Source of the DNA: Escherichia phage vB_EcoS_GZMU_E2010
DNA length: 44,255 bases
Sequence record: PV845598.1
Reading direction: 5' to 3' (one strand)
The notes beneath the pieces were generated by a model, which made no database searches, was not told where the DNA came from, and worked only from the letters and a program-made list of their open reading frames with translations. Below are positions 31,935 to 34,287 of the stretch, piece after piece (position 1 is the first letter of the stretch; each line of letters begins with the position of its first letter). A program made the translations under genes and the position numbers.

Positions 31935-32395
31935 CATTCCGGCTTCGTAACCTTCGCCGCTTTGCTTACGGCCTCTACACCATCGGCATCGGTAACTTTA
32001 ACGAAGTATTCACCGACCGCATTAACCGTCAGAGACAGAGCTTCTTCTGGGGCGTTGACTACTTCCTTACCGTCTTTGTACCAGGTCAGCGCATACGGTG
32101 CTTTGCCTGCCTTAACTTCGACAGTGATAGTTGCGCTGCCGTCTGCCAGTTCAGCGTCTTTCGGTTGCACAGAGAAATACACATCGCCTGCGTCCGCCAG
32201 ATACGGAATCTCGTAAAGCATACCCGCTGCGGGTAGTGCAATACCGGTTTTATCTGCAAAAGGCATGTCGTCTACTGGTGTACCTAGTACACTTTCGTCC
32301 CCAATAGACACCACGTTCTCACCGGAGCCAGACACACGAGCAAACTGGACTACACGACGTGAAGGCACATCAGTTACTTTGAAAAAGCCCATCAT
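31934..32395 (-). CDS. Ig-like domain protein (153 aa)
   Basis: ALTWYKDGKEV...GEYFVKVTDADG pattern; start overlaps the upstream stop. Confidence 0.55.
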   Translation of the reverse strand: MMGFFKVTDVPSRRVVQFARVSGSGENVVSIGDESVLGTPVDDMPFADKTGIALPAAGMLYEIPYLADAGDVYFSVQPKDAELADGSATITVEVKAGKAPYALTWYKDGKEVVNAPEEALSLTVNAVGEYFVKVTDADGVEAVSKAAKVTKPE

Positions 32396-34287
32396 TAATC
32401 CCCTTTCAGATAATCAGCGACACGTTTATCGAGTTCCGCCATCTGCTTAAGCGTGAGCGGATTCCCGAAACCATCTACAGATATTACGCGAAACTCTTCC
32501 GGCGATATACCGCTGTTGCGGAAAATCTTACCACGAACAGGGCCGAGGGCCTGGTCCTGGAACCATGCAGGTTGTTGTTTCAGGAACTCGTAATAGGTTG
32601 TGTCCGCGCTTACCTGAGTGCCGCCGTCCGCGCCCTTAGCCGCGCGTTTTGCGCCTTTATCTAGGAAATCGAACTCTGAGCTGATTACGGGTGCGGTTGT
32701 GGAGCGACAGTTATGTGCTATAATTCCATTTGCAAGATACCAGTTCTGTTCATTTTCGAGGTTATAAACATGCCCGCAAAAATCAGCTTCACTAAAGACC
32801 AAATCGACAACATCATCAAGCTCTACGCCGACGGCATCGGACCAGTTGAAATCGGAAAGATTATCGGCGTTTCGTGCAGCCCAGTTATACGCGTTCTCAG
32901 AGAGAACGGCGTTAGGATCCGCGGCGGCAGCGACGCTATGTTTATCAGAATGGCTAAAGCTACTCCTGAGGAGCGCCTCGCTCTCTCCGCCGCGGCGCAT
33001 GAAGCTGTCCGAGGGAGAAAGGCCGACCATGCTGAACTGCTTCGCAGAGCCAAAGCCAGGGAGGGAGTCATCAACGCCGGCAGTCACTGGGAGTTCCTTG
33101 TCAATGATTTGCTTATTCAGACCGGACTTGACTTTATTCCAGGAAAGGCGGTCGACAAGTATAATCTCGACTTCGCCGTCGGTTCCGTCGCCGTGGAAGT
33201 CTTCGGGGGAGGTTGGGCTTGTACTGACCGCCGCCGGATTGACCGCTACATTAGCCGCACTAAACAAATCGGAGAACTTGGCTACAACGTTGTGTTCCTT
33301 ATGCTTGAGAGAGAGCGCAGAGTCCTTAACGCACACGAGCTTGTCGCCTATATTGAGAAGGCCGGAAGCAACCCAACCACGGGCAGTCAATACCTGGTGG
33401 TTTGGGGTGATAGACAAGGTGCGACCGGACTTTGTAGAGACATAGACTATAGGGCCTTTGTACGTCCGTTTAAAAATGTTAGAAACAGGGCTACCGGTAG
33501 ATACTACAGTGTCCCCAAGTAAGCAATTAGGATGGGCCGGAGGCATCGGCCCTTTACCGATTTCCCACGTCATCCCGTCCCTGGCTCTGCAAATCGTGCT
33601 GGTACGGCTGTCCAGCGTTGACACCCACTCGTACTTCTCAATGATATCGTCGTTCTGGCGGTACGTCTCGTTACGGGCTTCGTTGGATACGTGGGACAGC
33701 GCGGTGCGAATTACCGTAGCCGCGTTACGTTCAGAGATGTCCGCCAGCCCACCGGCACCAACAACATTCTTAACAATCTGCCGTGTTGTCTGGCCTTGTA
33801 CGAAACCCATCTTAACGCCAGTTACCAGGCGCGATACTTCTGTTTCACCCCAGCCATCCATCAGCTTAGTGAAATCGACGGGCTTGTCGCTTAACGATAA
33901 TGGTTGAAACTCAGCAGCGGCCCACACCTGCTCAGCGGTAGGTGTAACAAATTCCGCGTTAACGTTAGCCGTCAGCGTTTTTACGTTCCACTCAGCCTCA
34001 TACGCCGCCAGTTCCTTAAGGTCTTCTGTCAGCTTTGTTTGCCAGTCGCCTGTAAGCCCTGCCAGTGCTTCTTCGAGGTCGCGTAACAGTTTATTCAGCC
34101 GCTCGGTGCTGCGACCGTCGTCACCGAATAACAGCACCTGCCGTTTGATTTCGTCCCGCATTTCCTGAATGAACGGCGCGAGGTCTTTCACTTCACCGGA
34201 TGCGGCGCGTTGCAGCCATATCTGGTGGCTGATTAGGGATGTAAGTAAGCTCATAGATAAACCCTGTGACGCTAAAGTTAATAGCAT
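32395..34287 (-). CDS. head morphogenesis protein (Mu F / SPP1 gp7-like) containing an intein
   Basis: 630 aa; extein junction ...PPAHPN|CRSTTAPV... restores the family's C-terminal motif; position after the portal gene. Confidence 0.75.
   Translation of the reverse strand: MLLTLASQGLSMSLLTSLISHQIWLQRAASGEVKDLAPFIQEMRDEIKRQVLLFGDDGRSTERLNKLLRDLEEALAGLTGDWQTKLTEDLKELAAYEAEWNVKTLTANVNAEFVTPTAEQVWAAAEFQPLSLSDKPVDFTKLMDGWGETEVSRLVTGVKMGFVQGQTTRQIVKNVVGAGGLADISERNAATVIRTALSHVSNEARNETYRQNDDIIEKYEWVSTLDSRTSTICRARDGMTWEIGKGPMPPAHPNCLLGDTVVSTGSPVSNIFKRTYKGPIVYVSTKSGRTLSITPNHQVLTARGWVASGLLNIGDKLVCVKDSALSLKHKEHNVVAKFSDLFSAANVAVNPAAVSTSPTSPEDFHGDGTDGEVEIILVDRLSWNKVKSGLNKQIIDKELPVTAGVDDSLPGFGSAKQFSMVGLSPSDSFMRRGGESEALLRSSFSHSDKHSVAAAADPNAVLSENAYNWAARNADNLSDFNWSDAVGVELDDVVDLVFSEADFCGHVYNLENEQNWYLANGIIAHNCRSTTAPVISSEFDFLDKGAKRAAKGADGGTQVSADTTYYEFLKQQPAWFQDQALGPVRGKIFRNSGISPEEFRVISVDGFGNPLTLKQMAELDKRVADYLKGD
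32697..32724 (+). promoter_or_regulatory. candidate extended -10 promoter for the antisense ORF
   Basis: TGcTATAAT at 32716-32724, the antisense of intein codons GIIAHN; weak -35 TTGTGG 16 bp upstream. Confidence 0.4.
32710..33525 (-). other. intein (272 codons, residues 255-526 of the head morphogenesis protein)
   Basis: Cys1 + CLLGDTVV (block A), TPNHQVLT (block B), VYNLENEQNWYLANGIIAHN (F/G) followed by +1 Cys; central ~175 codons low-complexity. Confidence 0.75.
32770..33522 (+). CDS. antisense-encoded HTH + PD-(D/E)XK (Vsr/DUF559-like) endonuclease candidate inside the intein
   Basis: ORF 32713-33522; ATG 32770 has GAGG 6 nt upstream; HTH-like IGKIIGVSCSPVIRVLRENGV; nuclease-like YNLDFAVGSVAVEVFGGGW...GYNVVFL. 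In-register antisense ORFs can arise from codon bias. Confidence 0.5.
   Translation: MPAKISFTKDQIDNIIKLYADGIGPVEIGKIIGVSCSPVIRVLRENGVRIRGGSDAMFIRMAKATPEERLALSAAAHEAVRGRKADHAELLRRAKAREGVINAGSHWEFLVNDLLIQTGLDFIPGKAVDKYNLDFAVGSVAVEVFGGGWACTDRRRIDRYISRTKQIGELGYNVVFLMLERERRVLNAHELVAYIEKAGSNPTTGSQYLVVWGDRQGATGLCRDIDYRAFVRPFKNVRNRATGRYYSVPK

Follow-up and report, generated by a model that had tools for sequence, protein, structure and literature searches.

Introduction

Where is the homing endonuclease of an intein encoded when the intein's own reading frame holds no endonuclease domain? The question is raised by the head morphogenesis gene of Escherichia phage vB_EcoS_GZMU_E2010, which was analysed in a stretch of 44,255 nucleotides (record PV845598.1; hereafter the window, meaning this whole stretch). 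The gene carries an in-frame insert of 272 codons with the blocks of an intein, and the complementary strand of the same nucleotides carries an open reading frame (ORF) in exact codon register with the head gene and wholly inside the bounds of the intein. A first-pass annotation, made from the letters and the ORF list, had proposed an antisense-encoded endonuclease function, with a sense strand that does no more than hold a frame open for splicing, and this proposal is supported by a flip of codon phase, by the ratio of nonsynonymous to synonymous substitution rates (dN/dS), by the contrast between the two predicted structures, and by relatives of the element. We conclude that the insert is very probably a composite mobile element, in which a class-1 intein is combined with a homing endonuclease encoded antisense and made as a separate protein. 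The architecture is rare but has already been described, so that the remark in the earlier annotation that it is not a textbook arrangement holds true, although the arrangement was already in print.

The Intein and Its Splicing Domains

The head gene encodes a precursor of 630 amino acids (aa), from which a spliced protein of 358 aa is predicted, and the head protein matches Pfam Phage_Mu_F (1.7e-11), TIGR01641 (2.9e-12), and PHROG 241, head morphogenesis (2.4e-150). The best DNA match is Escherichia phage Snoke (92.8% identity), and the source phage is of the Guernseyvirinae siphophage type; the Snoke record already annotates an intein, and the Snoke genome announcement mentions it and states that phage K1ind2 is without one. 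The recognition of a 272-codon intein with canonical blocks in this Mu-F-like gene was correct, as the insert matches Pfam Intein_splicing (PF14890) at 3.4e-9 and NCBIfam intein_Nterm and intein_Cterm (TIGR01445 and TIGR01443) above cutoff. Its blocks read Cys1-LLGDTVV, TPNH, GHVYNLE, and NGIIAHN, followed by the +1 Cys at 32707-32709; residues T40, N42, H43, H271, and N272 are invariant in the alignment of sense proteins (A2), as are G251, H252, V253, Y254, and N255 of block F. The nucleophile Cys1, the TxxH of block B, the His-Asn pair, and the +1 Cys, together with profile and fold, identify a class-1 intein, and protein splicing of the 630-aa precursor would be expected from these signatures.

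The limits of the intein are set exactly by two intein-less alleles (loci L093 and L094), and the insertion point is the conserved PPxHxN/C motif of the Mu-F-type head gene (a slash marks the junction). Removal of the insert had been expected to restore PPAHPN/CRSTT, and the intein-less phages XY2 and K1ind2 indeed read ...GPMPPAHPN/CRSTTAPV..., exactly the predicted spliced product; in XY2, the DNA of the intein-less junction spans CCCATCCTAAT/TGCCGAAGT.

The AlphaFold2 model of the sense intein, built on an alignment of 12 sequences, is confident only at residues 1-67 and 232-272, which form the two splicing lobes, and the stretch between them is predicted to be disordered. Foldseek matches the sense intein to the RadA, RecA, and DnaB mini-inteins (prob 1.00), and all Protein Data Bank (PDB) matches are mini-intein splicing domains. 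A Pfam domain was sought in the sense linker and none was found, in agreement with the earlier statement that the sense centre has no LAGLIDADG or HNH motif.

Selection on the Two Frames

Ten phage alleles with 71-93% identity were aligned, substitutions were counted by codon position, and dN/dS was estimated by the Nei-Gojobori method. One further allele (L006; MG969408, Salmonella phage GE_vB_HIL, flagged UNVERIFIED) was left out of the selection analyses owing to frameshifting indels in head gene and intein, which are probably sequencing errors. At the centre of the intein (32770-33440), variable sites make up 120 of 223 third positions of the antisense frame, 70 of 224 first positions, and 28 of 224 second positions (chi-square p=2e-6). 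Antisense position 3 corresponds to sense position 1, and the codon phase is flipped between ~32770 and 33300; sense position 3 is the most variable in both exteins, and the sense phase is dominant across the C-terminal splicing lobe. Correspondingly, antisense dN/dS is 0.06-0.17 and sense dN/dS 0.73-1.78 at 32770-33300, and in the exteins the relation is inverted (sense 0.03-0.13, antisense 0.97-2.6); dN/dS is biased in overlapping frames, but the mirror-image asymmetry is robust. At the centre of the intein, purifying selection acts on the antisense frame but not on the sense frame, so that the sense linker is an open frame without amino-acid constraint. The comparison of substitution patterns proposed at the outset has thus favoured the antisense gene.

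The N-terminal splicing lobe (33325-33525) overlaps the C-terminal tail of the antisense ORF and is dual-coding. At 33301-33525, the codon phase gives a mixed signal and both frames are constrained (sense dN/dS 0.34-0.68, antisense 0.27-1.17), the sense frame more strongly at larger divergence, and the antisense tail (QYLVVWGD..., ...ATGRYYSVPK) is therefore largely a shadow of intein blocks B and A. The end of the tail is suggested to be dispensable by one relative (P0014), whose antisense ORF stops earlier.

Maintenance of Two Open Frames

With two genes in antiparallel codon register, only TTA, CTA, and TCA codons in the plus-strand gene would put stops into the minus-strand frame. The 250 codons of the antisense gene include none of the three, against an expectation of ~5.5-6.4 (P~0.002). 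The first-pass annotation had cautioned that avoidance of these codons might keep such a frame open by chance, and the caution was well judged for a single locus: one of 22 other long ORFs of the window is likewise open in register for 250 codons or more (355 codons), so the openness of this locus is only suggestive and the comparative data are decisive. Among 47 intact lineages (clustered at <70% protein identity), no forbidden codon occurs in ~11,480 codons, whereas the codon usage of the lineages' own exteins would predict ~273, and loci of 38% GC, where 15-20 per gene are expected, are likewise without them.

These data bear on the proposal that the plus-strand ORF is a chance open frame whose homologues and conservation merely shadow a sense-encoded intein domain. 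The 355-codon open run elsewhere in the window speaks for it, as do the antisense tail, which mirrors blocks B and A (QYLVVWGD, ATGRY.SVP), and the stronger sense constraint at larger divergence in 33301-33525. At the centre, however, it is the antisense frame that has third-position wobble while sense dN/dS is ~1, the sense protein is predicted to be disordered there whereas the antisense product folds like a nuclease homologous to 3r3p (see below), and forbidden codons are absent from all 47 lineages, even at 38% GC. A chance frame is accordingly given next to no probability and is already refuted as far as computation reaches.

Structure of the Antisense Product

The antisense product was modelled by AlphaFold2 from an alignment of 15 sequences with a mean pLDDT (per-residue confidence) of 84.4 and a pTM (global model confidence) of 0.62. 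The best Foldseek match of this confident model, whose computation had been proposed as a check, is the catalytic domain of the homing endonuclease I-Bth0305I (3r3p; prob 1.00, TMt 0.60), and the DUF559-like structure 3hrl is also matched (prob 0.84). The same two entries are found when a profile of the antisense family is searched against PDB sequences (3r3p, 5.8e-6; 3hrl, 3.5e-3). The family profile is needed for this match, as a single-sequence phmmer search of the antisense protein against the PDB returned noise only; an NCBIfam search of the window's antisense protein alone gave only sub-threshold matches.

The predicted protein is bipartite. A helix-turn-helix (HTH) segment had been suspected from the letters, and an N-terminal HTH module is supported by three model helices (9-20, 25-32, and 36-45), by a match to Pfam HTH_7 (0.005), and by HTH_23, HTH_7, or HTH_28 matches in 6-8 of the 15 family members. 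The number of N-terminal HTH copies varies from one to three among lineages (alignment A1 of the antisense family, columns 1-140), and the length of the sense linker varies in step. The C-terminal part matches Pfam MTES_1575 in 8 of the 15 family members (best 8.6e-9). The family profile aligns YNLD134F...VAVE143VFGGGW149 with WNV(D196A)F...LAIEVNGVYW(H213A) of 3r3p. This core motif (YNLDF...VAVEVFGGGW, at 33160-33216) and its surroundings hold E108, D134, E143, W149, and Ala150; D134, E143, and G146 are invariant in alignment A1 and E108 nearly so, and D134 aligns with the metal-binding Asp (D196 of I-Bth0305I, D51 of Vsr). A nuclease activity, and a target at or near the intein-less junction, are predicted for the window's enzyme.

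A different view of the insert would hold that both frames are functional, the sense linker having a role of its own as a degenerate endonuclease, a DNA-binding domain, or a sensor for conditional splicing. Conditional splicing is known for other inteins, and a few sense columns at the centre (F110, H111) are conserved. These columns, however, are the reverse complement of VAVEVFGG, the catalytic motif of the antisense protein, as is the conserved sense 'DFHGDG'; moreover, the linker has a sense dN/dS of 0.7-1.8 and a pLDDT of 27-49, matches no Pfam or PDB fold beyond the splicing lobes, and has a length that tracks the antisense HTH repeat number. A function of the sense linker is therefore regarded as very improbable.

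Layout and Expression Signals of the Antisense Gene

The antisense ORF runs, as previously read, from ATG 32770 to TAA 33520-33522 and encodes 250 aa (Table 1); the stop-to-stop ORF begins at 32713. Its signals coincide with the splicing blocks of the other strand. A GAGG precedes the start codon as had been stated, although at a distance of 8 nucleotides (nt) (32758-32761) rather than 6. The Shine-Dalgarno (SD) sequence lies opposite the Asn-Leu codons of block F (GHVYNLE) and the ATG opposite its His codon, each as the reverse complement, and the segment from SD to ATG is near-invariant in 11 phage alleles. Among the lineages in which block F was located (37 of 37), the codon opposite the block F His is ATG in 33 and GTG in 4, with GAGG or AAGG before it. 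The antisense TAA is the reverse complement of the Leu2 codon of the intein, and a stop occupies this place in 36 of 47 lineages.

Further upstream but still inside the intein, TGCTATAAT lies opposite the Ile-Ile-Ala codons of block G and resembles an extended −10 element. This site, too, is present as first described, and it is the sole occurrence of the pattern TGNTATAAT in the 44-kb window on both strands; TATAAT is kept in 10 of 11 alleles and its TG in 8 of 11. Transcription and translation of the antisense gene would be consistent with these signals. The 70 nt at 32710-32780, which encode blocks F and G in the sense direction and hold the candidate promoter, 5′ untranslated region, SD, and start in the antisense direction, are almost invariant among the 11 alleles, and sense third positions are conserved there too, even in alleles that are 79% identical over the whole intein.

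Table 1. Coordinates of the head morphogenesis gene, its intein, and the antisense gene in the window.
Feature	Position	Strand	Basis
Head morphogenesis gene, Mu F/SPP1 gp7 family minor capsid	32395..34287	−	ORF list, Pfam, TIGR01641, PHROG 241
Class-1 intein, 272 codons (head gene codons 254-525)	32710..33525	−	Pfam, NCBIfam, intein-less alleles
N-terminal splicing lobe, residues 1-67, blocks A and B with TPNH	33325..33525	−	AlphaFold2 pLDDT 70-91
Sense-frame 'linker', intein residues 69-231	32833..33321	−	AlphaFold2 pLDDT 27-49, sense dN/dS 0.7-1.8
C-terminal splicing lobe, residues 232-272, blocks F and G	32710..32832	−	AlphaFold2 pLDDT 78-88
Antisense gene of the predicted homing endonuclease, 250 aa + TAA	32770..33522	+	ORF, homologues, dN/dS, AlphaFold2 pLDDT 84.4
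Predicted HTH DNA-binding module, residues 8-45	32791..32904	+	Pfam HTH_7 0.005, homologue HTH matches, model
Predicted Vsr-like PD-(D/E)xK nuclease domain, ~residues 105-200	33082..33369	+	Foldseek, family profile, MTES_1575
Shine-Dalgarno GAGGT 32758-32762 and ATG 32770-32772	32758..32772	+	Sequence, conservation
Putative extended −10 TGCTATAAT	32716..32724	+	Pattern search, conservation

Mobility and the Case for an Active Endonuclease

The insert is present in 69 phage records, and the contiguous intein-less junction is found in ~400. The intein centre of the window shares 96% identity with that of phage sidste at an antisense synonymous divergence (dS) of 0.13, whereas the exteins are 69% and 81% identical with dS of 1.9 and 1.2, and the intein is more similar than the exteins in every phage pair compared. 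The low dS of the intein against the high dS of the exteins, and its presence in 69 and absence from 400 records at one exact site, indicate that the intein has recently passed horizontally from phage to phage across diverged lineages.

The extein sequence adjoining the intein was also compared. About 35 nt on either side (32660-32709 and 33526-33560) are near-identical among intein-carrying phages that otherwise differ (compared with L004), and these flanks differ from the intein-less L093 and L094 by several synonymous changes; the CRSTT codons, for example, are TGT CGC TCC ACA ACC in intein-carrying and TGC CGA AGT ACC ACT in intein-less alleles. Such near-identical flanks look like a co-conversion tract, a trace of target-site immunity, or both.

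Besides the bias of dN/dS noted above, several points weigh against the composite mobile element. The proposed general base, a His (H213 of I-Bth0305I, H69 of Vsr), is Ala150 in the window's protein; it had been noticed that the D and H of the usual motif were missing, and the catalytic His is indeed absent, although the position concerned is Ala150, W149 matching the conserved Trp. In the inactivated I-Bth0305I construct that was crystallized, two active-site residues are substituted, one of them by H213A (Taylor et al., 2011; PMC3239194). The Pfam matches of the window's protein are sub-threshold (HTH_7, 0.005; MTES_1575, 0.09-0.11), and a PHROGs search found no family for it. Furthermore, a scan for sigma-70 −35/−10 pairs reported no promoter upstream of the antisense ATG, and the putative promoter TGCTATAAT is no more than a match to the consensus. 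Finally, the joint P of ~1e-121 for the missing forbidden codons assumes independent lineages and is only indicative, as the lineages are related, yet the effect is still unambiguous.

The absent His gives weight to the idea that the antisense protein is real and selected but is no active double-strand homing nuclease in the window's subclade, serving instead as a nickase, as a site-specific DNA-binding regulator or recombination helper, or in conflict between phages or between phage and host, the intein being spread by ordinary recombination or another nuclease. Ala or Ser stands at the His213-equivalent position in this subclade (8 of 47 lineages), and the HTH modules are conserved, both of which this idea would accommodate. 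By contrast, the nuclease core is under strong purifying selection with its acidic residues and G146 kept as described, the synonymous divergence of the intein is tenfold below that of the exteins within the His-less subclade, which argues for ongoing efficient transfer, and 39 of 47 lineages keep the His, so that the family as a whole looks catalytic. The signals of selection and mobility are strong in exactly the His-less subclade, in which either the place of the His is taken by another residue or the protein has a different mode of action, such as that of a nickase. A role other than that of an active double-strand homing nuclease is judged unlikely, and the composite element with a homing endonuclease is retained.

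Distribution in Phages and Metagenomes

Full-length homologues of the antisense protein number 16, and tblastn finds the family in 105 cultured phage records (Salmonella, Gordonia, Klebsiella, Vibrio, Acinetobacter, Aggregatibacter, Edwardsiella, and Mycobacterium). In Gordonia phage Angelicage and Aaphi23, the two records checked beyond enterics and Vibrio, the match lies antisense under an annotated head gene. A scan of IMG/VR by pattern and tblastn found relatives encoded in 559 stretches, and the best 80 loci were retained for comparison. The in-register minus frame is open across the whole plus ORF and into the exteins on both sides in 73 of these 80 loci (ORFs of 480-1311 aa), where the other two minus frames are short; six loci differ only in that the stop-to-stop plus ORF overruns a short C-extein. 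Both frames are therefore open in 79 of 80 loci, and the search for a relative that keeps the intein but has lost the antisense frame, which the earlier annotation had named as telling, found none among the best 80 of 559. The sole broken locus (L021) has its endonuclease ORF split (690-1253 and 1225-1860; locus 690-1860) and its sense ORF truncated, and may be a decaying copy or an assembly error.

The junctions always read ...HxN/C(L/V)xGD... and GHVYN(L/F)(E/Q)T...HN/C, and the inteins are hosted by minor capsid genes of the Mu-F type, among them one for a portal-MuF fusion and one for a VG15-type protein. One locus (L095) carries the intein and antisense endonuclease module in an RtcB RNA ligase gene (3001-4290, plus strand; antisense ORF 3172-3846, minus strand; junction ...EAIN/CFPGD...), from which it follows that the module has switched exteins; the gene caller split RtcB at 3001. 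In another (L032), a single Mu-F-like gene (2857-5718, minus strand) holds two such inteins (...ARTE/CLTGD... and ...PLHPN/CLPGD...; 2758-4959, plus strand), each with its own antisense endonuclease ORF (hidden Markov model E of 1e-95 and 2e-43). Three proteins without the ...ATGRY.SVPR tail (P0013-P0015) were considered as free-standing relatives and rejected, as P0014 also lies antisense inside an intein and merely stops earlier, and no free-standing family member was found. In a TARA scaffold (L001, 4239-7840), runs of N cause the gene caller to join or cut short the ORFs of portal, Mu-F, and intein, and the resulting 762-aa protein is an artefact.

GenBank records label the antisense ORF 'hypothetical' or omit it. 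The intein-containing head gene is labelled 'NAD+--asparagine ADP-ribosyltransferase' in MZ560703 (TU03), MT677934 and NC_073183 (NBSal007), and OQ507916 (ZCSE7), a label that is without support from the Pfam, NCBIfam, and PHROG matches of the window's protein. In the window itself, the stop codon of the head gene (32395-32397) overlaps the start of the downstream decoration/Hoc-like gene (31934-32395, minus strand) in a TAATG arrangement, which suggests translational coupling of the two genes.

Proposed Mechanism

In the mechanism that we propose, the minus strand would be translated straight through the insert, and the two HINT lobes (residues 1-67 and 232-272) would be tethered by a disordered linker of ~165 residues whose sole requirement is the absence of a stop codon. 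The lobes would then associate and splice the 358-aa head protein together, and the plus strand would yield the 250-aa enzyme with its HTH module and its Vsr-like nuclease domain related to I-Bth0305I. In a mixed infection, the enzyme would cut intein-less alleles at or near the PPAHPN/CRS junction, and recombinational repair would copy the intein and the endonuclease gene into the cut allele. The antisense expression signals (putative extended −10, SD, ATG, and stop) lie inside the intein, so that the whole cassette would move as one unit.

A more tentative proposal, which as a whole we consider possible rather than probable, is that of an ambigrammatic, self-contained cassette. The splicing blocks would double as antisense expression signals (block G as extended −10, block F as SD and start, Leu2 as stop), and intein and endonuclease would be bound to each other by the nucleotides they have in common. 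Antisense transcription that converges on the late head operon might also set the timing of homing or adjust the expression of the head gene, and the His-less enterobacterial subclade might cut by a variant of the Vsr-type mechanism. These ideas of cassette, expression timing, and variant cutting were not found in the part of the preprint of Gosselin, Arsenault and Gogarten (bioRxiv 10.1101/2025.01.02.630785) that was available.

Several aspects of the element are of wider significance. The 750-nt antisense overlap is under selection both ways: one frame is selected for its protein sequence, the other to stay open. Extended antiparallel overlaps between genes of prokaryotes and phages are as a rule discounted as artefacts and are disallowed by annotation pipelines. 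The family is systematically unannotated, although it is encoded by the 105 cultured phage records and 559 IMG/VR stretches mentioned above. Phages of Escherichia coli and Salmonella (Snoke, Jerseyviruses), together with their abundant intein-less relatives (K1ind2, XY2), constitute a genetically tractable system, and since changes that are synonymous in the sense frame can disable one partner at a time, the way in which a mini-intein and a free-standing homing endonuclease come to form one mobile unit (the 'splicing-first' model) can be tested in it. Furthermore, a Vsr-like enzyme with a variable number of HTH copies is a possible source of new sequence-specific nucleases.

Comparison With Known Systems

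The ambigrammatic narnaviruses offer a formal parallel, as their reverse ORF stays open through the exclusion of the three codons that become stops when reverse-complemented. Their long reverse ORF lies in exact codon register (PsV5; PMC10203264, as far as the available part of that article describes it), which provides an analogy only and no membership. Narnaviruses differ in being RNA viruses and in having no mobile-element logic.

I-Bth0305I (PMC3239194; 3r3p) shares with the window's protein the catalytic Asp (D134), an additional acidic residue at the position of Vsr Phe62 (E143), the WNxDF...IEVxGxxW(H) motif, and a bipartite build with N-terminal DNA-binding and C-terminal nuclease parts. 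It is, however, encoded on the sense strand in a group I intron and carries NUMOD modules, whereas the present protein is encoded antisense in an intein and has HTH modules and an Ala for His213.

Fractured genes, in which free-standing Vsr-like or GIY-YIG genes lie between the halves of split inteins in phage and metagenomic genes, were described by Dassa et al. (2009; PMC2677866), and the window's element resembles them in that a Vsr-like endonuclease gene is nested between intein splicing regions as a separate translation unit. An identity with fractured genes was rejected, as those have same-strand ORFs, a split intein, and trans splicing, whereas here the ORF of 630 codons is continuous and the endonuclease gene lies on the opposite strand.

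Antisense LAGLIDADG inteins are known from Synechocystis DnaX and a Chloroflexus SpoVR-like protein (Gorbalenya, 1998; Gogarten et al., 2002; both as cited in 10.1101/2025.01.02.630785). As far as their description in that preprint allows a comparison, they likewise have an endonuclease ORF opposite an uninterrupted intein ORF, but the endonuclease is of the LAGLIDADG type and the hosts are cellular, whereas a Vsr-like PD-(D/E)xK enzyme and a phage host are found here.

The closest counterparts are the inteins with antisense VSR-like homing endonucleases in minor capsid genes of actinophages reported by Gosselin, Arsenault and Gogarten (10.1101/2025.01.02.630785); in the available part of this preprint, the inteins of minor capsid proteins are stated to be exclusively non-canonical, the VSR-like endonuclease is matched to 3R3P by HHpred, and signs of continued horizontal transfer are reported. 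The actinophage elements, as described there, share with the present one a contiguous intein, a Vsr-like/EDxHD-like antisense ORF, a MuF-like host gene, and a structureless endonuclease region in the sense frame. The window's protein is homologous to antisense ORFs in the MuF genes of Gordonia phages Angelicage, Affeca, and Vivi2, and its element is therefore of the same kind. No analysis of codon register, dN/dS, or stop-codon avoidance was found in the available part of the preprint, to which the present study adds a tractable enterobacterial member, the codon register, selection per frame, the forbidden-codon statistic, the signals embedded in the splicing blocks, and the metagenomic scale. 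Unlike the actinophage elements, the present one resides in an enterobacterial phage of the Guernseyvirinae and belongs to a subclade without the general-base His.

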